35,320 bases of DNA, from IMG/VR virus record IMGVR_UViG_2606217174_000009. One strand, written 5' to 3'. Positions 4,354 to 17,461 of this stretch are shown in pieces. The position numbers were made by a program, and so were the translations under genes. This DNA comes from a virus (Duplodnaviria > Heunggongvirae > Uroviricota > Caudoviricetes). Numbering within the stretch: the first letter of the stretch is position 1; every line of letters begins with the position of its first letter. The notes beneath the pieces are model-generated. The model saw only the letters and a program-made list of their open reading frames with translations, was not told the DNA's origin and searched no databases.

Positions 4354-4538
4354 CGCTGTTCTCCAAAAATGCCAAGTTGAAGAAGAGCAATTCTTGAAAG
4401 TATGGAATTATCATTCAGAAGATAAGGCTCATATTTCCTCATATTAATGGCATCATCAGTGAAGTCTTTATTACTGAGCTGAATGCCAATATTAAAACAA
4501 CCTTCAGACGTATTAACGTTTGGTAATAACGTTTCCAT
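4350..4538 (-). CDS. Hypothetical small protein (62 aa)
   Basis: Internal ATG of ORF 4350..4643 preceded by GAGGA; same strand as the early-left operon. Confidence 0.3.
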   Translation of the reverse strand: METLLPNVNTSEGCFNIGIQLSNKDFTDDAINMRKYEPYLLNDNSILSRIALLQLGIFGEQR

Positions 4539-5138
4539 TATCGCGTCCTCAACAATGAATTTTGTGATGCGGTGCCTGGTGCCTCCAGGTGACGTTAACC
4601 AGTTAACAATTAACGCCGGATACAGAGAATCCACCCATAACACTGTTTTTGGTTTTAACTGTTCCGCGTGCGCTCAGCCGCATTCACCACATCACAAAAT
4701 TCACTTTAAAAAGGGCGGCAGAGCAGTCACGGAGTAAAACTGATACCGCCAAACGTCACCAGAAAATTGATAACAGAGGGCGTTACAGCGGGGTTGTCAC
4801 TTAAGCGTATGGTCAACCTGACAACCCGGTGTCCTCAACGGGGGAAGGAATACCCCCGCCATACTTACCGCCGCGCCATTTCGCGGATTGCCACAACCGG
4901 AAGCGCACGGTCGACGAAAATTTAACGACAGGCTATCTATGAACCAGCTACCTCGCCGTGCGCTTTCGCGTTATGGTCTGACTTTTCAGGGAAATATCCT
5001 TTCAGTAAACTGTCAATGCCGGATGCTCACCCGTGTCCGGCGCACGCACTCCACCTCACCCGTGGAGAACTCCTTAATTACTAACCTTAGCTTTGTTGAT
5101 TAGCTACTAACGCGGGTATGTAATCATTCTGGCAATGC

Positions 5139-8497: not shown

Positions 8498-8920
8498 GTG
8501 GCAAAAGTATTTACACAAGAAGAGCGAGAAAAAATTAAAGGGCAGGTTGTTGAACTCGTACGCCAGAGTGGGCGTGAGACGTTACGACAACTGGAAGTCA
8601 AGACAGGTGCGACAAGATATCTGATGAGCGTTCTCGCGAGAGAGCTGGTTGCCAGCGGTGATGTATACAATTCTGGTTACGGGTTATTCCCGTCTGAACA
8701 GGCGCGTAAGGACTGGCAAAATGCCCGTAAAAAGCTCTCAAGGGCAAAGCTGAAGAAACCATCTGCGGTTGATCCGGACCTTATCTGGTCATTACCTGAT
8801 GGAGAAATACGTCGTTACGACAGGCATCATAATATAATTTGTACTGAGTGTCGTAAAAGCGAAGTTATGCAGCGCATATTGTCGTTTTATCAGTGGAATG
8901 TTCGGTATTTATTAAAGTGA
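8498..8920 (+). CDS. Hypothetical protein (140 aa)
   Basis: GTG start preceded by AGGAGG; follows the replication gene; no recognisable domain. Confidence 0.5.
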   Translation: MAKVFTQEEREKIKGQVVELVRQSGRETLRQLEVKTGATRYLMSVLARELVASGDVYNSGYGLFPSEQARKDWQNARKKLSRAKLKKPSAVDPDLIWSLPDGEIRRYDRHHNIICTECRKSEVMQRILSFYQWNVRYLLK

Positions 8921-9216
8921 CGAAATTAAAATGCATTAGTTAAGATGTGAATTGACATTTTGTGGCACAGGATAGAGCTATCGTGGTTGTCCGCTTTGTG
9001 CCAGAAGCGGAAGTTAGAAATTATCTGCCAACCGATAAGATGGCTGCCTAAGTCGTAGCGATTCAGCACTGTTTTAGCGGCGCTCGATTGCAAAGTCGTG
9101 CTTTGCTGACTTGCGATTGTGCTCTTTACGAGCAAAGCTTTCAGGTATAGTAAGTGCTAACTGTAGTGTAAAATTATAGGGATAGATGAAGAAAACAACG
9201 AGGCTTTAGCTAATCT

Positions 9217-9238
9217 TTGCAGTTGTGTCTGCTATAAT
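9217..9238 (+). promoter_or_regulatory. Candidate extended -10 promoter (TGCTATAAT) for the KAP cassette
   Basis: TGnTATAAT at 9230-9238 in an AT-rich intergenic region about 80 bp upstream of the 9320 start. Confidence 0.4.
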
Positions 9239-9319
9239 AAGGCGAAATTTTATCTGCATGATTTTGTTTGATTAACTCCGAAAGCCAGCTCTCTCGGTGA
9301 AGATTGGGAAGGGATATCA

Positions 9320-12300
9320 ATGAGTGATGATAGCTATAAATTTCAAAAGTTAACGCCGTTCAGCGATGTTGAGCTGGGTGTATATAAAAATGCGATAGAT
9401 TTTGTTTTTGCCAATAACGATCTAAAAAATGTTGCGATATCAGGGCAATATAGCGCAGGAAAAAGTAGTCTTATCGAATCCTATAAGAAAAGTCATTCAA
9501 ATATAAAGTTTGTTCATATCTCACTTGCTCATTTCAGATCGATTGAGGAAGCTGAAACTAATGAACCAAGTAAAGATATAAATGAAACCGCGTTAGAAGG
9601 TAAAGTTCTTAACCAGTTAATTCACCAAATTAATGCTGATGATATTCCCCAGACACATTTTAAAGTAAAGAAAAAAATAAAAACTAACAACATTGTGATA
9701 AACACCATCTTTACGGTGTTATTTATCGCTATGATACTACATATCACGCTATTTAATAAGTGGGAAAAGTTTGTTTCACTTTTATCTGAAGGTAATATAA
9801 AGACACTACTTACATTATCAACTAAATACGATACGCTTTTAATTAGTGGGTTTATATGTACTATCCTATCTTGTATTTTCATTTACAAGTTAATAAAAAC
9901 TCAAAAGAATCGTAATGTTCTTAAGAAAATAAATTTACAGGGTAATGAAATAGAGATTTTTGAAGAAAGTAACGAGTCTTATTTCGATAGATATTTAAAT
10001 GAAGTATTGTACCTTTTCGAGAACGTTGATGCTGATGCCATTGTTTTTGAAGACATGGACCGTTTTAATAGTAATAACATCTTTGAACGTCTTCATGAGG
10101 TTAACAGACTGGTTAATATTCAACGGGACACAGCAGGGCACAAGAAATCGACGTTACGTTTTATTTACTTGCTTCGTGATGATATCTTCATTTCGAAGGA
10201 TAGAACCAAATTCTTTGATTATATCATTCCAGTTATTCCTGTTGTTGATAGTTCTAACTCTTACGATCAGTTTATCACACATTTTGATGGTGGTGGTATT
10301 CTCAAGTTGTTCAATGAAAGATTTCTACAAGGGATGTCTTTATATATTGATGATATGAGAATATTGAAGAATATTTATAACGAATTTCAAATTTATTATA
10401 ACAAATTAAACACGACAGAACTTGACTGTAATAAAATGTTGGCCATTATTGCCTATAAGAATATTTTCCCAAGAGATTTTAGTGAGTTGCAACTTAATCA
10501 AGGTATGGTTTATACCATATTTAGTGAAAAAGACAACCTTATTATTGAAGAAATAAAGAAAATAGAAAAAGATATTAGAGATAGAAAAAAAGAGATTGAG
10601 GCAATCAATGATGAAATACTCAACTCTAGTCAGGAGGTTGATGCTATATACGATAAGGAATTATCTAGATATAATAATCATCCTCACTATAATCAGGCTG
10701 AGAAAGCTGATATAGCAAAGAGAAGGGCGGCTAGAAAAGAAAGTGTTGAAAATAAATTTAATGGTAAAATAGAAGAAATTAATGAGCTTATATCAAGATC
10801 AAGAGAAAGTTTGGTTGATTCTAGAAACAAAAGACTTAAAGAAGTAATAACTAGAGAAAACATTGATGAAATATTTAAACTCACCTATACCAATGAAATT
10901 GGAGAGGAAAGAGACTTTAATGAAATAAAAAGCAGTGAGTATTTTGACTTGCTTAAATACCTTATTCGTGATGGTTATATTGATGAAACCTATACCGACT
11001 ATATGACCTATTTTTATGAAAATAGCCTGAGTCGAATTGATAAGATGTTTTTACGCAGCATTACCGATCAAAAAGGCAAAGAGTTCACTTATCAACTCAA
11101 GAACCCCAAACTGGTCGTTGCCCGCCTTCGAGAAGTGGATTTTGAACAGGAAGAGGCGCTTAATTTTGATTTATTAGCTTATCTGCTTCAAACGCCAGCC
11201 CAGGTAAACTTAATAAAACGTTTATTCAAACAACTAAGAAAAGATAGAAGAGTTGAGTTTATTCGTGGTTACTTTGAAACTGAGAGGGCTCAGCCTGTCT
11301 TCATTAATCGATTAAATACACAGTGGCCTGAGTTTTTTTCTTATGCGCTGACAGAGAGTGAATTTTCTGCTGATTGGGTTAAACTCTACTCTATAGGCAC
11401 GTTTTATTATTCTGCCAATGACGCCATCGAGGCCATTAATATTGATGATTGTCTGACTGATTACATCTCTGATTCGGCAGGTTATTTAGCAATATCAGAA
11501 CCGAAGGTTGACAAATTAATTAGTGGTTTTAAGTTGCTTAACGTCTCTTTTGTCAGTATTAAATTTGAAAACGCAAATAAAGTACTCTTTGATGCGGTTT
11601 ACCAGCATTCACTTTATGATATTAATTTTTCCAACCTGACCTTAATGCTGAGTAAGGTTTACACGCTTAATAGTGAAGATGATATTCGCCATAAGAACTA
11701 TACACTAGTGATGTCACAACCTGATTCTCCCTTGGCTAGTTATGTTAATAACCATATTAGGGACTATCTGGATATGGTTTTATCTAGTTGTGATGGTTCA
11801 ATCGTGGATGATGAATCCATTGTTTTATCCGTTCTTAATAATGAGGGAATATCTGATGAACAAAAAGGCCAGTATATAAACGCTTTGCAAACTTTCGTGA
11901 CATCTCTGAGTGAGGTTGAGAGCGAATCTTTATGGTCATCTTTGTTGGATAAAGATAGAGCAGTGTGCTCTGAGGAAAATATTGTCTCTTATTTTGAACA
12001 TGTTGATGGACTGGATGACTCACTTATCGAATTTATCAATAGAACTGATGTAGACCTGAATTTTCAAAATATTAATATTGATAACGAGCTTAAAGGTAAA
12101 TTATTTAAATCGATTGTTATCTGTAATGATTTATCAAATGATAAATATGAAAAATTAATTTGCTCACTAAATATTATTTGTAAAACATCCTTTAGCGCTA
12201 GTAATATCGCGAGTGATAAGTTCAAAATATTAGTGGATAAAAATATTATTCGTATGAATGTTGCGCCACTTAATTTCATACGAGATAACTATTCAGAGCA

Positions 12301-12691
12301 ACTTTCCTATTATATTCATAAGAATATCAGGGCATACGTTGAATTAATGACGATTGATAACTTTATTTTGGATGAGGCTATATCAATACTTTCTTGGAAA
12401 GTTGATGATGATTTGAAAGTTAAGCTACTCGAGTTTGTTAAAACTCCGTTGGCTATTTATAGTAAGAATTACTCTCAGGTCGTTAATGACTATATTTTAG
12501 AAAATAATTTTAAACCAGATGAACTTCTAATCTTGACGTCATCTTATAAAACTTGGGGAACCTCTACTCAGTCGCTCATCTTGAGTCGAGCAATACAGGA
12601 TATATCAGCATTGATAGCAAGTCCTAATGATGTTTCTGAACCGTTACTAAAAAAACCTGTTTGTCGCAGAGGGACTGAATATGCAGAATAA
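9320..12691 (+). CDS. KAP-family P-loop NTPase (1123 aa) with transmembrane insert
   Basis: Walker A GQYSAGKS (aa 42-49); two hydrophobic helices (about aa 124-146 and 172-192); Walker B-like IVFEDMDR (aa 241-248); long C-terminal region with a charged coiled-coil-like segment; strongly AT-rich. Confidence 0.8.
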   Translation: MSDDSYKFQKLTPFSDVELGVYKNAIDFVFANNDLKNVAISGQYSAGKSSLIESYKKSHSNIKFVHISLAHFRSIEEAETNEPSKDINETALEGKVLNQLIHQINADDIPQTHFKVKKKIKTNNIVINTIFTVLFIAMILHITLFNKWEKFVSLLSEGNIKTLLTLSTKYDTLLISGFICTILSCIFIYKLIKTQKNRNVLKKINLQGNEIEIFEESNESYFDRYLNEVLYLFENVDADAIVFEDMDRFNSNNIFERLHEVNRLVNIQRDTAGHKKSTLRFIYLLRDDIFISKDRTKFFDYIIPVIPVVDSSNSYDQFITHFDGGGILKLFNERFLQGMSLYIDDMRILKNIYNEFQIYYNKLNTTELDCNKMLAIIAYKNIFPRDFSELQLNQGMVYTIFSEKDNLIIEEIKKIEKDIRDRKKEIEAINDEILNSSQEVDAIYDKELSRYNNHPHYNQAEKADIAKRRAARKESVENKFNGKIEEINELISRSRESLVDSRNKRLKEVITRENIDEIFKLTYTNEIGEERDFNEIKSSEYFDLLKYLIRDGYIDETYTDYMTYFYENSLSRIDKMFLRSITDQKGKEFTYQLKNPKLVVARLREVDFEQEEALNFDLLAYLLQTPAQVNLIKRLFKQLRKDRRVEFIRGYFETERAQPVFINRLNTQWPEFFSYALTESEFSADWVKLYSIGTFYYSANDAIEAINIDDCLTDYISDSAGYLAISEPKVDKLISGFKLLNVSFVSIKFENANKVLFDAVYQHSLYDINFSNLTLMLSKVYTLNSEDDIRHKNYTLVMSQPDSPLASYVNNHIRDYLDMVLSSCDGSIVDDESIVLSVLNNEGISDEQKGQYINALQTFVTSLSEVESESLWSSLLDKDRAVCSEENIVSYFEHVDGLDDSLIEFINRTDVDLNFQNINIDNELKGKLFKSIVICNDLSNDKYEKLICSLNIICKTSFSASNIASDKFKILVDKNIIRMNVAPLNFIRDNYSEQLSYYIHKNIRAYVELMTIDNFILDEAISILSWKVDDDLKVKLLEFVKTPLAIYSKNYSQVVNDYILENNFKPDELLILTSSYKTWGTSTQSLILSRAIQDISALIASPNDVSEPLLKKPVCRRGTEYAE

Positions 12692-12953
12692 AATAGCACT
12701 GCTAATCGCTTTGTTGCCGGGTAAGGATTTGAGTAAGACGACTTGCAAAGAGTATCTTGATCTGCTTGGTTTATCGGAGTTCAGTAAAATTTTGGGGCGA
12801 GGCAAACCTAAAATTGAAGTTGATTCAACTAATCAAAGTTTATTAACAGCATTAAGAGATAACCACTTCTTCTCTGATTTTGAGGTGGATAATGAAAATC
12901 CCACTTATTATAAAATAACAAGGCGGCGCTCTATGTTTGGCTCAGATACATAG
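12681..12953 (+). CDS. Small partner protein (90 aa) overlapping the KAP NTPase stop
   Basis: ATG at 12681 overlaps the KAP stop by 11 nt (translational coupling); same AT-rich composition; no recognisable domain. Confidence 0.55.
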   Translation: MQNKIALLIALLPGKDLSKTTCKEYLDLLGLSEFSKILGRGKPKIEVDSTNQSLLTALRDNHFFSDFEVDNENPTYYKITRRRSMFGSDT

Positions 12954-12976
12954 CATTATGTATTTTTCTACAGTTT

Positions 12977-13003
12977 GGGCACTTTTATAGTGCCCAATTT
13001 TTA
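12977..13003 (+). terminator. Rho-independent terminator after the KAP cassette
   Basis: GGGCACT-TTTAT-AGTGCCC hairpin followed by AATTTTTA. Confidence 0.6.
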
Positions 13004-13601
13004 CGCTGAAACTTACGCAGATAATCTGACTTTTTCCCAGTTGACGAGTACACCTAGGTGTTCGTGAAGCCCTCAGTGTGTTGGGACAGATGCGAGCGTC
13101 CGCTCTTCGCTCAAAGCGGCCTAGAAGGTTAGCTTGCGTCGGACTTGGCGTATTTAAAGAAGTGCTGGTGGTGACTGGTTGTTGTGTTCCATTTCTACAG
13201 AACAAAATCACAGAAACTATACCCAATAGTTGTATTGAATCACTGACGAGACAGCCTCATATTTATCAGGACTGGTGTACGTCCAATACAGGAGGTTGTG
13301 GTGCTGGTTCTCAAATGTGCGCTGGCTATTGCTGCTGTAATGGCAATTTATTGCCTTGCTGTTGTTCTTATGGATCGCCTTTCTGACTGATTTCATATTG
13401 GCGAGGTGACGGGAGTTAAGTAGAATGGCTGCGGGTGCTTGAGGCTATCTGTCTCAGGCATGAACACCAACGGCAGATAGAGAAAAGCCCCAGTTAACAT
13501 TACGCGTCCTGCAAGACGCTTAACATTAATCTGAGGCTCAATCTATGAACGGCAAATCTAGGTTAGCCTCTTACGTGCCGAAAGGCAAGGAGAAGCAGGC
13601 T

Positions 13602-13757
13602 ATGAAGCAGCAAAAGGCGATGTTAATCGCCCTGATCGTCATCTGTTTAACCGTCATAGTGACGGCACTGGTAACGAGGAAAGACCTCTGCGAGGTACGA
13701 ATCCGAACCGGCCAGACGGAGGTCGCTGTCTTCACAGTCTACGAACCTGAGGAGTAA
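13602..13757 (+). CDS. hok: Hok/Gef-family type I toxin
   Basis: 51 aa MKQQKAMLIALIVICLTVIVTALVTRKDLCEVRIRTGQTEVAVFTVYEPEE matches the Hok/Gef family; AAGGAG SD; in-frame upstream ATG at 13545 gives a 70-aa mok-like extension. Confidence 0.85.
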   Translation: MKQQKAMLIALIVICLTVIVTALVTRKDLCEVRIRTGQTEVAVFTVYEPEE

Positions 13758-13825
13758 GAGACCAGGCGGGGGAGAAATCTCCAGCCACCTCTGATGTGTC
13801 AGGCATCCTCAACGCACCCGCACTT

Positions 13826-13846
13826 AACCCGCTTCGGCGGGTTTTT
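13826..13846 (+). terminator. Rho-independent terminator after hok
   Basis: CCCGC-TTCG-GCGGG hairpin plus T-run. Confidence 0.6.
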
Positions 13847-13922
13847 GCATTAGTCTGGTTGACAAAAACAGGAAAATGCGAAAATATAAGGTTTACGAAT
13901 TCTAAAAAAAGCGAAACTTGAA

Positions 13923-14573
13923 ATGAATGAAAATCAGTTAGCTCCTTGTTGGGAATTTCAACCTTATCTTGCTGAAAGCAATGTTCGCCAGTTGTTGGCG
14001 GAGATCGCTAACGTACTTGAGCAGTTGTACTATCATAAGCACGTATTAGACAGCAACTGGTCTGAAGGTGTAAGGGCTTATGATTGGGTCAGAAACCATC
14101 TTATTCAAAATGAAGGCGCAATTCCTGGTCTTAAGATGATTTCCAAGGGGTTGGACTATGTAGTTGCTTTAAATAAAGTTCCGCTACAATTTACCAAAGA
14201 TTGCATTAATAACCCCAAAAAGAAACATCGCCTGCGTCGAAATAAAGTAGAGCATGAGCAGCTTTCATTGTTTGGTGATGTTGAGGCTGAGCAAGATATT
14301 ACATGGCGAGTCATAGCGGAGCCATTTTTATCCGAAGAGGGAGATGGTGAATTAGAGTCCACACTGCCTCGTTGGGAGGTGGCTCTTGTTGGGTTTAATA
14401 TCTATGGTGCTCAGATTAGTATGGTTTCTCATCAATCTACAGCATCAATGCCACTTATGCCCCTTGACGGTAACACACTCCCTGGCGAAGCGGAGATTAA
14501 TAAGGTGTCTCTTCGTCGGCGTACGAAGGATAAAATTTTGGATGTGAGCAGTAATGGAACATCAGGTGAATAA
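13923..14573 (+). CDS. Hypothetical protein (216 aa) coupled to the downstream XRE/ImmA gene
   Basis: AT-rich ORF; 3' end overlaps the downstream gene by 20 nt; TTGACA at 13859-13864 with an AT-rich -10-like hexamer about 18 bp downstream; no recognisable domain. Confidence 0.6.
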   Translation: MNENQLAPCWEFQPYLAESNVRQLLAEIANVLEQLYYHKHVLDSNWSEGVRAYDWVRNHLIQNEGAIPGLKMISKGLDYVVALNKVPLQFTKDCINNPKKKHRLRRNKVEHEQLSLFGDVEAEQDITWRVIAEPFLSEEGDGELESTLPRWEVALVGFNIYGAQISMVSHQSTASMPLMPLDGNTLPGEAEINKVSLRRRTKDKILDVSSNGTSGE

Positions 14574-15657
14574 CTTCACTGAGTATCGAGGCGATAAGCT
14601 CAAACTAGCAAGAATGGCTGTTGGGCTTTCATGTGAAGAGTTGGCCGAAAAAATTGGCAAAACAAAACAATTCGTTAGCAAATTGGAGAAGGGATTTAGG
14701 CCATCAGAGCAATGCCTGGAGTTAATAGCCTCAGCTCTTATGATTAAGCCCGATTTTCTATTTACTGAGCGAAAATATGCTCTGGAAAGCGATGTTTGCC
14801 ATTTTCGGAGTAAGAAGTCCAGGACTCAAACGCTGACTAATAGTGTCTTGGCCAGGGCTGAGATTCTTAATATTATAATTTCTGCTGTTGAAGGTGAAAT
14901 CGAATTCCCTGATGTCAACATACCAGAGCACCCAGGAACTGAATTACTTACCCCGAATGATATTGAGCGAGTGGCAGAAGATTGTCGCCGTGCATGGAAT
15001 CTAGGTCTTGGCCCTATATCATCAATGGTGAAATTGGCGGAGAGTTTGGGGGTAATCGTTGCGCATGTTACGGGAGTCGATGATCGTGTTGATGCATTCA
15101 CTGTTCACAATAACAGGCCTGTTATTATCAGGAACAATGTAAAAAAAAGCATATGTAGATTTCGCTCTGATTTAGGTCATGAGTTAGGGCATTTAGTAAT
15201 GCATGAGGGCATAACTACTGGTGATAAACTTACGGAATCACAAGCTGATCACTTTTCTAGCGCCTTATTGGTTCCTAGGCTATCTTTCATTAAAGAATTT
15301 CCACGAATACGAGGTAAGCAATTCGATTGGAGTGCTCTGGTTGAATTTAAGCTTAGATGGAAAATTAGCCTTAAAATGTGTATTTATCGAGCCAGTGCAT
15401 TAGGACTATTGACCCAGGAACAGGCAAGAACTGGCTATATGCATCTTAATTCTAGAGGGTACACGAGAGTTGAACCAGGTGATGAACTTTTGCGCCACGA
15501 AGAACCAAGTATGCTGTCCGAAGCGATTGACATGCTGGATGATGCAACTTGGTTAAGAATTCTTATGAAAACTGGCTTGAGTCAAGATTTAATTCGTGAG
15601 TTGTTCTCCATCAATCGACCTATTACAAATCCAAGAAATATTTTTCAGATTGTTTGA
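14554..15657 (+). CDS. Fused HTH-XRE / ImmA-IrrE family zinc metallopeptidase
   Basis: N-terminal HTH (LSCEELAEKIGKTKQFVSKLEKG); central HEXXH motif (HELGHLVMHE) typical of ImmA/IrrE (COG2856) peptidases. Confidence 0.8.
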   Translation: MEHQVNNFTEYRGDKLKLARMAVGLSCEELAEKIGKTKQFVSKLEKGFRPSEQCLELIASALMIKPDFLFTERKYALESDVCHFRSKKSRTQTLTNSVLARAEILNIIISAVEGEIEFPDVNIPEHPGTELLTPNDIERVAEDCRRAWNLGLGPISSMVKLAESLGVIVAHVTGVDDRVDAFTVHNNRPVIIRNNVKKSICRFRSDLGHELGHLVMHEGITTGDKLTESQADHFSSALLVPRLSFIKEFPRIRGKQFDWSALVEFKLRWKISLKMCIYRASALGLLTQEQARTGYMHLNSRGYTRVEPGDELLRHEEPSMLSEAIDMLDDATWLRILMKTGLSQDLIRELFSINRPITNPRNIFQIV

Positions 15658-15660
15658 GCA

Positions 15661-15687
15661 TACCCGCTACGGCGGGTTTTGTTTTTT
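15661..15687 (+). terminator. Rho-independent terminator after the XRE/ImmA gene
   Basis: CCCGC-TACG-GCGGG hairpin followed by TTTTGTTTTTT. Confidence 0.55.
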
Positions 15688-15759
15688 CCGGGCTTTTTGG
15701 TTTACAATCCGCACGCCAGCCTGAACAACTGGCACCTGCTGCGCCAGCAGAGAAAAACG

Positions 15760-16038
15760 ATGGCGCACAATACCAAATCACACAATTCTGATAATTCAGC
15801 CGTCTTTGCCAGCAGGCACGGGCGGCGTTTGCACGCATTTAAAACTCGCTGGTATCAGCACCCTCCATGCACTGAAGAACAGGCTGAATGGCTAATTCAG
15901 AGCTACCGCAGACGTGGCTATGAGGTTCAGAAAGATCTCAGCCTCGACCGACTGCACTGGATAATCTCTGTGAGGCTCCCTTACTCCGAGCGCCCACCGC
16001 GTCCATCCCGCACATTCCAGCAACGTATCTGGAGGTAA
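15760..16038 (+). CDS. Hypothetical nin-region protein (92 aa)
   Basis: First ATG of ORF 15679..16038 that lies downstream of the terminator; stop abuts the next gene. Confidence 0.45.
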   Translation: MAHNTKSHNSDNSAVFASRHGRRLHAFKTRWYQHPPCTEEQAEWLIQSYRRRGYEVQKDLSLDRLHWIISVRLPYSERPPRPSRTFQQRIWR

Positions 16039-16039
16039 C

Positions 16040-17089
16040 GTGCGGGTATTACTTCGACCTGTTCTTGTGCCAGAACTCGGGCTGGTGATCGTTAAGCCGG
16101 GCCATGAATCCATGCCGGTATTCCAAAATACCCGGGTACTGGTGGAGCCGGAACCGAAAAGCATGCGTAATCTGCCGTCCGGGGTCGTTCCTGCCGTTCG
16201 CCAGCCGCTGGCGGAGGATAAATCATTACTGCCATTTTTCAGCGACGAACGAGTGATTCGTGCTGCTGGTGGCGCTGGCGCATTGTCTGACTGGTTACTG
16301 CGCCATGTTAAATCCTGCCAGTGGCCACACGGCGATTATCACCACAGTGAAACCGTCATTCACCGTTATGGCGCTGGCGCGATGGTGTTGTGCTGGCACT
16401 GTGACAACCAGCTGCGTGACCAGACATCCGAATCACTCGGGCAACTTGCTCATCAAAACCTGTCAGCATGGATGATTGACGTCATACGCCATGCAATGAA
16501 TGGCACGCAGGAGCGGGAATTGTCGCTGGCTGAATTATCCTGGTGGGCGGTCTGCAATCAGGTGGCGGACGCGCTTCCGGAGGCAGTATTACGTCGTTCT
16601 CTGGGGTTACGTGCGGAAAAAATCCGCTCGGTGTATCGCGAAAGCGACATCATACCGGGAGAGCAGACCGCCACCAGCATACTGAAGCAGCGCACAAAAA
16701 ATATTGCGCCGCCGTCTCACGCCCGCCAGCAACAGAACCCACCACAGGAAAAGACGGTGGTATGCATCACCGTTGATCCGGAGTCTCCGGAATCTTTCAT
16801 GAGGCGACCTAAACGTCGCCGTTGGGTAAATGAGAAATATACGCGCTGGGTGAAGACACAGCCGTGTGCGTGTTGTGGTCAGCCAGCCGACGATCCCCAT
16901 CACCTGATTGGTCACGGTCAGGGAGGGATGGGAACAAAGGCCCACGATATTTTCACGCTACCGTTGTGCCGGGAACATCACAACGAACTTCATGCGGATC
17001 CGCTGGCGTTCGAAGAAAAGCATGGTTCTCAGATTGATTTAATTTTTCGTTTTCTTGATCACGCCTTTGCAACTGGCGTGCTTGGGTAA
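16040..17089 (+). CDS. Lambdoid nin-region protein with C-terminal HNH/zinc-ribbon-like motif (DUF968-like, from memory)
   Basis: GTG start with GGAGG SD; C-terminal CACCGQPADDPHHLIGHG...CREHHNELH motif. Confidence 0.6.
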   Translation: MRVLLRPVLVPELGLVIVKPGHESMPVFQNTRVLVEPEPKSMRNLPSGVVPAVRQPLAEDKSLLPFFSDERVIRAAGGAGALSDWLLRHVKSCQWPHGDYHHSETVIHRYGAGAMVLCWHCDNQLRDQTSESLGQLAHQNLSAWMIDVIRHAMNGTQERELSLAELSWWAVCNQVADALPEAVLRRSLGLRAEKIRSVYRESDIIPGEQTATSILKQRTKNIAPPSHARQQQNPPQEKTVVCITVDPESPESFMRRPKRRRWVNEKYTRWVKTQPCACCGQPADDPHHLIGHGQGGMGTKAHDIFTLPLCREHHNELHADPLAFEEKHGSQIDLIFRFLDHAFATGVLG

Positions 17090-17101
17090 AAGAGGTGACT
17101 G

Positions 17102-17461
17102 ATGCTCATAGATTTGGTTTTACCTTACCCGCCGACGGTGAACACTTACTGGCGACGCCGTGGCAGCACATATTTTATCTCGGAGGAGGGAAAGCGTTAT
17201 CGCCGGGCTGTGGCGCTTATTGTTCGCCAGCAGCGGCTGAAATTAAGCCTGTCCGGAAGGCTGGTGATAAAGGTGATTGCAGAGCCACCGGATAAGCGTC
17301 GTCGCGACCTGGACAACATTCTGAAAGCACCGCTGGATGCGCTGACGCATGCGGGAGTGCTCATTGATGACGAGCAGTTTGATGAAATCAATATTGTACG
17401 TGGTCAGCCAGTATCTGGTGGACGGCTGGGTGTGAAGATTTACAAAATTGAGAGTGAGTGA
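17102..17461 (+). CDS. rusA: RusA Holliday junction resolvase
   Basis: 119 aa; LPYPPTVNTYWRRRG and DKRRRDLDNILKAPLDALTHAGVLIDDEQ match the RusA family; typical nin-region position. Confidence 0.9.
   Translation: MLIDLVLPYPPTVNTYWRRRGSTYFISEEGKRYRRAVALIVRQQRLKLSLSGRLVIKVIAEPPDKRRRDLDNILKAPLDALTHAGVLIDDEQFDEINIVRGQPVSGGRLGVKIYKIESE

Follow-up and report, generated by a model that had tools for sequence, protein, structure and literature searches.

A 35,320-nt stretch of DNA held in IMG/VR as a virus of the class Caudoviricetes (IMGVR_UViG_2606217174_000009) is a Qin/Rac-type lambdoid prophage of Escherichia coli. This whole 35-kb stretch is termed the window herein, and all coordinates refer to it unless another locus is named. 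Between the replication genes, of which the DUF977 gene is the last, and the DUF968-RusA-Q block, the window carries three modules. In order, these are a gene for a YobI-family nucleoside triphosphatase (NTPase; 9320-12953), a hok/mok/sok locus (13433-13757), and a pair of genes for proteins of 216 and 367 amino acids (aa) that match RosmerTA models (13923-15657). We consider it very probable that this region is an accessory-gene hotspot of a Qin-type lambdoid prophage, made of known defense-type systems. It is laid out as a conserved hok/sok landmark flanked by two variable slots, called A and B. The cassette in slot A ends exactly at two 24-nt palindromes, and the same pair of elements brackets fun(Z), the old T5-exclusion moron of phage P2. 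These boundary palindromes are the most interesting and the least explained feature of the region.

Two Variable Slots Flank a Conserved hok/sok Locus

Homology to the window was mapped across the 80 closest IMG/VR loci, which were anchored on the DUF968 protein and are called relatives below, and genome counts refer to a set of 5426 complete E. coli genomes. The left flank is the DUF977 gene (8498-8920, + strand; Pfam DUF977, 3e-28), which is conserved, with homologs in 41-46 of the 80 loci. On the right, orf119 and the YdfU-like DUF968 gene (15679-17089, + strand; Pfam DUF968, 2.3e-77) are conserved in 72-80 loci and, together with RusA, make up the block that forms the right-hand side of the region (15679-17461). 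Between these flanks, homology with the relatives breaks sharply at about 9000, at 13100 or 13400, at 13845, and at about 15660. The YobI block is present in none of the 80 relatives and the RosmerTA block in 4 of them, and the hok block (13400-13845) is kept in 64-69.

Slot A, which extends from DUF977 to hok, is represented by 28 sequence types in 40 loci, with lengths of 1.09 to 6.5 kb. Slot B, from hok to orf119, has 12 types in 68 loci, including 26 with an empty gap of 85-86 nt. Defense-type cargo carried in these slots by the relatives includes a CBASS (cyclic oligonucleotide-based antiphage signaling system) cyclase with a SLATT effector, PADLOC Hp1-3, PD-Lambda-2_C, and a DUF262/NsnA-like protein, and further loci hold a Mrr-like nuclease or a second, unrelated type of RosmerTA. 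Other slot genes do not look defensive, namely an Ea22-like gene, a NUDIX plus HAD pair, and the gene for QueH (epoxyqueuosine reductase), the last of which fills the shortest slot A type of 1089 nt (L008, 7647-8735; also L012, L019, and L032). The region thus has conserved flanks around many alternative contents that are enriched in defense genes, which is what distinguishes a prophage defense hotspot.

An initial annotation of the window had described this region as three accessory modules stacked in a moron or defense island, each with its own terminator and a deviating base composition, and as a place to find an undescribed system. The order of the modules and their position between the replication and nin-like/RusA genes agree with our gene calls and family matches, and an island at a variable position is borne out by the absence of the YobI block from all relatives, the rarity of the RosmerTA block, and the other defense genes carried in their place. 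The claim of separate terminators also holds. A scan of the region for terminator-like hairpins returned 12 sites, compared to 5.3 ± 2.7 in shuffled sequences, and the top three are located directly 3′ of the three module ends (12975-12997, 13826-13843, and 15662-15677).

Base composition supports the description in part. The backbone of the prophage has a guanine-cytosine (GC) content of 50-51%. The YobI gene deviates strongly, with 32.7% overall and 29.7% at third codon positions (GC3), and the two RosmerTA genes, rmrT and rmrA, deviate moderately (42.5% and 41.0%, respectively; GC3 37% and 35%). In contrast, the hok block has a GC content of 52.9% and is indistinguishable from the backbone. 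Because the hok block shares the composition of the backbone and is found in 64-69 of the 80 relatives, it is not a variable insertion, and the layout is that of two slots around a conserved hok/sok locus rather than of three stacked insertions. The hok/sok locus is better assigned to the prophage backbone. The GC profile nonetheless is not uniform across the region, and the alignment of the relatives reveals no gene set common to all of them at this position.

The expectation of an undescribed system does not stand, as all three modules strongly match existing families in Pfam, PADLOC, and Rfam. It is also highly improbable that the modules form one undescribed, cooperating multigene system. 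The modules are adjacent and co-oriented, and Tmn, the defense family to which the YobI protein is related, has been reported to synergize with other defenses (PMC13001434). However, each module has its own terminator, and each family has been described as self-contained (PMC10440598; PMC13001434). Such a system is already contradicted by the genome counts, wherein the YobI gene is present in 32 genomes, RosmerTA of the window type in 237, and all three modules together, in the 6.8-kb arrangement of the window, in 0 of 5426.

Slot A Is Bounded by Palindromes Shared with P2-Like Phages

Slot A spans positions 8989-13121. Its left end is formed by a 24-nt palindrome that we designate L type (GTCCGCTTTGTGCCAGAAGCGGAA; 8989-9012, + strand), which is predicted to fold into a 7-bp hairpin (-6.7 kcal/mol, z -3.5). 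Its right end is formed by a related 24-nt palindrome, designated R type (GTCCGCTCTTCGCTCAAAGCGGCC; 13098-13121, + strand). The pattern TCCGCT-N5-14-AGCGG occurs in the window only at these L and R sites (0.14 sites expected).

Two comparisons place the breakpoints of homology at these elements. First, the segment that the window has in common with a non-prophage island (L085, 6670-10799) covers positions 8989-13119, or 4131 nt at 99.86% identity, and its ends are exactly the L and R 24-mers. Second, nine Qin-type relatives retain L, R, and the flanks with other cargo between them, such that homology to the window stops at 9003-9022 and resumes at 13091-13099. The cargo in these nine loci consists of CBASS, Hp1-3, a DUF262 protein, a Mrr-like nuclease, NUDIX plus HAD, and unknowns.

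The elements are also present well beyond Qin-type prophages. When IMG/VR was scanned with the L consensus, at least 120 stretches were recovered, and about half of the loci among the matches listed are not of the Qin type. Many of these non-Qin loci are P2-like prophages, in which the L-R pair is located between the tail-fiber assembly gene and the tail sheath gene. In phage P2 itself (AF063097), fun(Z) is bracketed by an L-type element (15335-15358) and a degenerate R-type element (17432-17455). Among the 80 IMG/VR loci listed, 55 L-R pairs were identified that enclose 0.54-5.4 kb of cargo, including DarT plus DarG, PD-T7-1, PDC-S15, and PDC-S39. The two types hold their left and right positions across all 55 pairs, and their loops are conserved as well as their stems. 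Furthermore, adjacent cassettes are separated by a junction of R, about 18 nt of spacer, and L. A 66-nt consensus of this R-spacer-L junction is present at a coverage of at least 80% in 1116 of the 5426 E. coli genomes. A single genome contains as many as 7 places with any match, and these are always unannotated. A scan of one genome per species likewise revealed the L-type 24-mer in many Enterobacterales.

Given these patterns, we propose that slot A cassettes could be exchanged by recombination at the L-type and R-type palindromes, either by a site-specific enzyme or by annealing of short homologies, for which we suggest proteins such as those of the prophage RecET type. Whether the L and R elements are the actual crossover points is, in our judgment, an evenly balanced question. 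Several observations weigh against it. The R copy of the window folds no better than shuffled sequences (z -0.68), and position 4 of the palindrome stems is often a C-A mismatch, so a requirement for the hairpin is not established. No recombinase could be linked to the L/R elements, and many Qin-type relatives lack these elements altogether. A search for an unoccupied slot A marked by just one hybrid palindrome led instead to the shortest slot A type, which has a degenerate L element before QueH and no R element. The cargo between L and R elements is not all defensive, as it includes NUDIX plus HAD, QueH, and a TonB-receptor/ABC cluster. The last of these is found in a P4/CP4-type island of E. 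coli FDAARGOS_1373 (L329), where an R-spacer-L junction at about 12001-12065 lies between a hypothetical gene and a TonB-dependent receptor/ABC transporter cluster, which indicates that L/R elements also flank non-defense cargo.

The same observations on the weak R hairpin, the missing recombinase, and the relatives devoid of L/R elements would fit ordinary lambdoid mosaicism, wherein homologous recombination takes place anywhere in the flanks and the palindromes and terminators are incidental regulatory or REP-like (repetitive extragenic palindromic) sequences in intergenic gaps. Identity between the flanks of relatives is 85-99%, sufficient for recombination by RecA or RecET, and the repeat at slot B is a plain intrinsic terminator. 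We nevertheless regard this explanation as rather doubtful, because the YobI cassette in the chromosomal island shares with the prophage just the segment from palindrome to palindrome, and because the same L/R pair brackets cassettes in P2-like phages, which have flanks with no relation to those of Qin. Conservation of the loops along with the stems, the constant orientation of L and R in 55 pairs, and the R-18 nt-L junctions between adjacent cassettes also argue against incidental sequences. Covariation in the palindrome stems was counted but is not used as evidence here, since the search pattern itself constrains the sequences.

A more speculative extension of exchange at the palindromes is that L (GTCCGCTYYGTGCCARAAGCRGAC) and R (GTCCGCTYYTCGCTCAAAGCRGAC) are the ends of a dedicated cassette-mobilization system, integron-like or hairpin-transposon-like, with a presumed recombinase of its own. 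We put this idea forward only tentatively. If true, such a system would carry defense and other self-contained cassettes back and forth among chromosomal or P4-type islands, the slot of Qin-type prophages, and the Z/fun site of P2. Neither an IntI-type integrase nor an attI site adjoins slots A or B or is present in the annotated islands L085, L328, and L329, and in L329 a protein labeled only as a "site-specific integrase" is encoded 2 kb away.

The palindromes were also compared to known elements. They have no match in Rfam even at E ≤ 5, and a role as intrinsic terminators was ruled out because no T-run follows them. Their sequences had no text match in the literature searched. Judging by the title of a 2004 article by Nilsson et al., which is cited by Rousset et al. 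for P2 variable loci, repeats at Z/fun were reportedly noticed 20 years ago. The papers citing that article gave no detail on the repeats. For the P2/P4 hotspots, recombination of cos ends has been proposed, palindromes are not mentioned, and the movement of cassettes is explicitly left open (Rousset et al. 2022).

Some further observations were made on the L element. A sequence upstream of it in the window (TGGCACAG; 8963-8970) is complementary to the L loop TGTGCCA (8998-9004), and this motif is also found ahead of L elements in P2-like phages (TATGGCACAGAGTAAAGCC). On these grounds, the conserved unit at L may extend beyond 24 nt and have more structure. An L-type 24-mer (GTCCGCTTTGTGCCAAAAGCGGAC) is also found in many Alphaproteobacteria, including Xanthobacteraceae, Pseudolabrys, Rhizobium, and others (L206-L285). 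There, it is usually located about 20 nt past a second palindrome (GTCCGCTTTACCCCCAAAAGCGGAC) with another loop, and some metagenome-assembled genomes contain many repeats.

Slot B Is Bounded by Copies of the hok Terminator

Slot B (13847-15661) contains the RosmerTA cassette between two copies of a hairpin. The left copy is the terminator hairpin of hok (13826-13846, + strand; -8.2 kcal/mol, z -3.7), and the right copy is a terminator hairpin that follows the cassette (15662-15681, + strand; ACCCGCTACGGCGGGTTTTG compared to ACCCGCTTCGGCGGGTTTTT for the left copy). Empty slot B sites read CTTAACCCGCTTCGGCGGGTTTTGTTTTTTCC and therefore have one copy of the terminator, whereas occupied sites have two. 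In one relative (L083), a different RosmerTA is present between the same two hairpin copies, with an RmrA that is 32% identical to that of the window and an RmrT of another PADLOC family. The sequence TCTGGTTGACAA is located next to the left hairpin in both of these unrelated cassettes, and in the window it includes a TTGACA reminiscent of a -35 element (13859-13864, + strand) that opens the cassette, although a full promoter was not called by the scan. With unrelated RosmerTA cassettes between the same two terminator copies, the RosmerTA cassette has the appearance of a classic moron that brings a terminator like the one already in place. Slot B cassettes may be exchanged at the duplicated hok terminator hairpin.

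Slot A Encodes a Frameshifted YobI-Family NTPase

The cargo of slot A is a gene for a Tmn-like transmembrane P-loop NTPase that belongs to the YobI family (9320-12953, + strand), followed by a terminator-like hairpin found in the scan described above (12975-12997, + strand). The encoded protein matches Pfam YobI-ATPase over residues 22-398 (7e-123; 411 bits compared to a cutoff of 27) and PADLOC Tmn (5.9e-67). From the N terminus, it has a Walker A motif (GQYSAGKS, aa 42), two hydrophobic helices (aa 122-148 and 170-193) that were called from a hydropathy scan for hydrophobic 19-mers alone, and a Walker B-like motif (AIVFED, aa 240). This layout is the one by which Tmn/YobI proteins are defined, namely conserved Walker A and B motifs, a P-loop domain into which two membrane helices are set, and a C terminus that is helical and variable (PMC13001434).

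Two features of this gene count against its assignment as a working Tmn-like defense. One is that the Tmn profile aligns only with the N-terminal 430 aa (profile positions 27-474 of 1273), so the sensor part, in the region of the C-terminal arms, is unlike that of the profiled Tmn proteins. The other is a frameshift. What the initial annotation had viewed as a KAP cassette of two genes, corresponding to open reading frames (ORFs) at 9320-12691 and 12681-12953, is one 1210-aa gene split by one extra A, such that a run of seven A nucleotides (A7; 12649-12655) is present where intact alleles have six (A6). A separate identity for the 90-aa ORF at 12681-12953 was rejected, as it is the frameshifted C terminus of the YobI gene. 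The intact 1210-aa allele is present in E. coli PO06101 (WP_001278661), from which the window allele differs by the extra A and three substitutions. The frameshift ends the protein at 1123 aa and thus removes the last 87 residues, and the product is therefore probably impaired, provided that the extra A did not arise in sequencing.

The A7 run may mark a true pseudogene, or it may have come about through slippage or through an error in sequencing. That the gene is intact in the organism and that the extra A arose in assembly or sequencing is a possibility of some substance, although we do not favor it. Errors in homopolymer length are common, the rest of the gene departs from the intact allele at only three positions, and 28 of the 32 E. 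coli genomes with this gene, all of which carry it on the chromosome, have it at the intact length of 3633 nt. On the other side, an IMG/VR contig (L097) also has A7, but this contig matches the first 13.6 kb of the window with 99.985% identity and unchanged coordinates and probably derives from the same source, and so it does not provide independent support. Independently broken alleles are also present in other strains (H79, H86, and L139), which reveals that the YobI gene does decay. In some strains, the gene is located in a chromosomal island by ydeP/ydeQ, beside ABC-three-component and AAA-ATPase genes and outside any prophage.

A Complete hok/mok/sok Locus Separates the Slots

The sequence matches identify module 2 as a type I toxin-antitoxin locus with hok, mok, and sok all present. 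The conserved hok block starts with a promoter-like site (TTGGCG-17-TAGAAT; 13398-13426, + strand), followed by the region of the hok mRNA leader and sok antisense RNA (13433-13607, + strand). This region matches the full Rfam model for sok (RF01794, positions 1-157) with 107 bits compared to a gathering score of 59. The 70-codon mok frame and, in frame with it, the ORF for the 50-aa Hok toxin (13605-13757) together occupy 13545-13757 (+ strand; Pfam HOK_GEF PF01848, 2.4e-22).

The prophage Qin of E. coli K-12 has relBE-hokD-rem at the same place, where slot A is filled by flxA/ydfV and relBE and slot B by rem. There (L084, 9120-9873), relBE is directly upstream of hokD, and K-12 hokD has no Rfam sok match. 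It has been reported that K-12 hokD lost its sok/mok part through the relBE insertion (PMC6379469). Thus, the window presents what is, by this comparison of sequences, the uninterrupted ancestral hok/mok/sok, unlike K-12 Qin.

Slot B Carries a RosmerTA Pair with a Soluble RmrT

The initial annotation had recognized module 3 as an "unknown/XRE-ImmA pair." The pair is indeed present, but it is not unknown, because its proteins match RosmerTA models. By these matches, module 3 is a RosmerTA pair composed of RmrT and an RmrA with XRE helix-turn-helix (HTH) and M78 (ImmA/IrrE) domains. RosmerTA has been defined as a Zn-peptidase antitoxin with a toxin of unknown function (bioRxiv 10.1101/2022.05.11.491447; PMC10440598). 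The gene for the candidate toxin RmrT, a soluble protein of 216 aa, is upstream (13923-14573, + strand; PADLOC PDLC03929, 3.6e-24 over positions 5-190 of 198) and overlaps by 20 nt with that of the 367-aa antitoxin/regulator RmrA (14554-15657, + strand; PADLOC PDLC03943, 7.1e-107). RmrA has an HTH_3 domain (8e-9, aa 16-69) and a Peptidase_M78 domain (5e-11, aa 176-281) with the sequence HELGH at aa 209-213.

RmrT belongs to no Pfam or NCBIfam family and has no sequence match in the Protein Data Bank (PDB), and its family is small, with 59 clusters at 50% identity in 1.84 billion proteins. An AlphaFold2 (AF2) model from a 48-sequence alignment has a predicted local distance difference test score (pLDDT) of 85 and a predicted template modeling score (pTM) of 0.76, compared to a pLDDT of 64 for an earlier model. 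The predicted fold consists of two long helices and, after them, a sheet of six strands, and a Foldseek search of the PDB with this model returned nothing at E ≤ 0.001. Only D43, E110, and R129 are conserved at 90% or more. The idea that RmrT is a nuclease was left as weak, since no PD-(D/E)xK catalytic motif is conserved.

The sequence QLSLF at aa 113-117 of RmrT (nt 14259-14273), just after the invariant E110, is invariant in close homologs. In distant homologs, the motif recurs as QLxLF or QLxLx[LF], and among 48 of these a loose form is present in 30, compared to 1% in shuffled sequences, and a strict form in 12, compared to 0.07%. The higher-scoring model places the motif at the end of a helix, with pLDDT values of 75-94, so it is not clearly disordered. 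It resembles the consensus for binding to the beta-clamp (DnaN), which is QL[SD]LF or QLxLx[LF] in an exposed, flexible segment, and the toxin SocB offers a comparison. The RmrT family may therefore act via a conserved motif that resembles a beta-clamp-binding site, and we treat this as a lead only.

Defense or Maintenance of the Prophage

We infer a role in defense for the alleles of the window from the families to which they belong. Members of the RosmerTA family protect against phages (bioRxiv 10.1101/2022.05.11.491447; PMC10440598), and anti-phage activity has been measured for both Tmn and RosmerTA (PMC13001434; PMC10440598; bioRxiv 10.1101/2022.05.11.491447). Nevertheless, hok/sok and RosmerTA could serve the maintenance of the prophage instead. 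In its full form, this alternative holds that the modules are selfish addiction or stabilization elements, comprising two toxin-antitoxin loci and a decaying gene, that kill cells that lose the cryptic prophage. Certainly, hok/sok is a classic post-segregational killing locus that persists in about 85% of the 80 relatives whatever its neighbors, RosmerTA is a toxin-antitoxin pair, and the YobI gene is broken. Moreover, an enrichment of hok genes is seen in prophages but not near defense systems overall (bioRxiv 10.1101/2025.08.07.668861). We judge this alternative unlikely, however, given the measured anti-phage activities of the two families and the presence in the same slots of CBASS, DarTG, PD-T7-1, and other defense genes that are not addiction modules. 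It should also be noted that maintenance and defense are not exclusive roles.

If the region is indeed a defense-type hotspot, its modules could act as follows. By analogy with characterized Tmn (PMC13001434), the C-terminal helical arms of the YobI protein would detect a phage protein, whereupon ATP turnover would collapse or arrest the infected cell. RmrA, whose HExxH motif is intact, would hold RmrT in check and probably autoregulates or represses the operon, and infection would release RmrT from RmrA. Hok would be translated once the unstable Sok RNA is no longer made, such that loss of the hok/sok locus or a shutdown of transcription would be lethal to the cell.

That a prophage defense hotspot should carry cargo from three named families is correct but unsurprising. 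More useful is the recognition that relBE-hokD of K-12 is one filling of a two-slot hotspot common in Qin-type prophages, which can be mined for new systems. The palindromes shared with P2 fun(Z), together with a junction present in about one-fifth of E. coli genomes, offer a testable handle on how cassettes move between unrelated elements. The analysis of RmrT also provides a first description of the structure and motifs of the soluble RmrT family.

Other Features of the Prophage and Its Relatives

The most common L-R cargo in Qin-type prophages is a NUDIX hydrolase paired with a HAD hydrolase (L026, 7533-8836, and 9 further loci, such as L104 and L157), for which there is no PADLOC match. 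Large slot proteins of 430-667 aa that likewise have no PADLOC match (L056, 3268-6609; L043, 7509-8849; L109, 1532-3223; L134, 7660-9306) are candidates for unrecognized defense genes.

In close relatives, the annotated gene order begins with integrase, excisionase, exonuclease, dicB/ydfD, DicF, repressor/Cro, a YdaT-like gene, a replication protein, and DUF977. It resumes 3′ of the hotspot with DUF968 (ydfU), RusA, an antiterminator, a DNA methyltransferase, tRNAs, and lysis genes. Further RNA features of the window are DicF, one strong and one weak copy of STnc100, a sub-threshold match resembling AgvB/AsxR, and three tRNA genes that lie downstream of the gene for the methyltransferase. Together, these features are at 4713-4764 (-), 4506-4715 (-), 20043-20240 (+), 20240-20299 (-), and 19689-19935 (+).

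Comparison with Known Systems

The individual modules are close to systems that have been described. Like hok/sok of plasmid R1 and hokD (relF) of K-12 Qin, the window locus has a Hok toxin, an in-frame mok leader ORF, a sok region, and a terminator, and it occupies the same position relative to ydfU (DUF968) as K-12 hokD. It differs from the latter in being complete, whereas the sok/mok part of K-12 hokD is gone. The YobI protein is like Tmn (PMC13001434) in being one large protein with the order Walker A, two membrane helices, and Walker B, in its intact length (1210 aa, compared to about 1270 aa in enterobacterial Tmn clades; PMC13001434), and in forming a stand-alone cassette borne on a chromosome or prophage. 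It is unlike Tmn in that its C-terminal arm region is off-profile, the gene in the window is frameshifted, and it is rare in E. coli (32 of 5426 genomes). Module 3 shares with RosmerTA (Millman et al. 2022; Ernits et al. 2023) a two-gene operon wherein the toxin gene is upstream of and overlaps rmrA, and an XRE HTH joined to an M78 Zn-peptidase. In contrast to the membrane-depolarizing RmrT of Gordonia phage Kita (PMC10440598), the window RmrT is soluble, and its predicted fold has no significant match among solved structures.

The organization of the region can be compared to three kinds of variable loci. Lambdoid morons are said, after Juhala and Hendrix in 2000, to be promoter-gene-terminator units inserted between backbone genes. 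The cassettes of the window are like them in having their own terminator, a deviating GC content, an intergenic insertion site, and no counterpart in close relatives, but they do not fit the classical description in that the boundary repeats are conserved and one site is reused by dozens of cargos. A second comparison, by analogy, is with integron cassettes and attC sites, with which the slots share promoter-less or self-contained cassettes, short structured repeats, and repeat-spacer-repeat junctions. However, attC sites are conserved in structure, whereas the L/R elements are conserved in sequence, and no IntI or attI is located next to the arrays, so this region is not a member of that group.

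The closest parallel is with the defense hotspots of P2 and P4 (Rousset et al. 2022), in which unrelated defense cassettes likewise replace each other at one set place in the genome of a temperate phage. The region described here differs in belonging to a Qin-type lambdoid phage, in being located after the replication genes rather than by cos or the tail genes, and in having two slots around a toxin-antitoxin landmark. The palindromes that bound its slot A are nonetheless identical in kind to those around fun(Z) in P2 and around the cargo at the Z/fun position of P2-like prophages.

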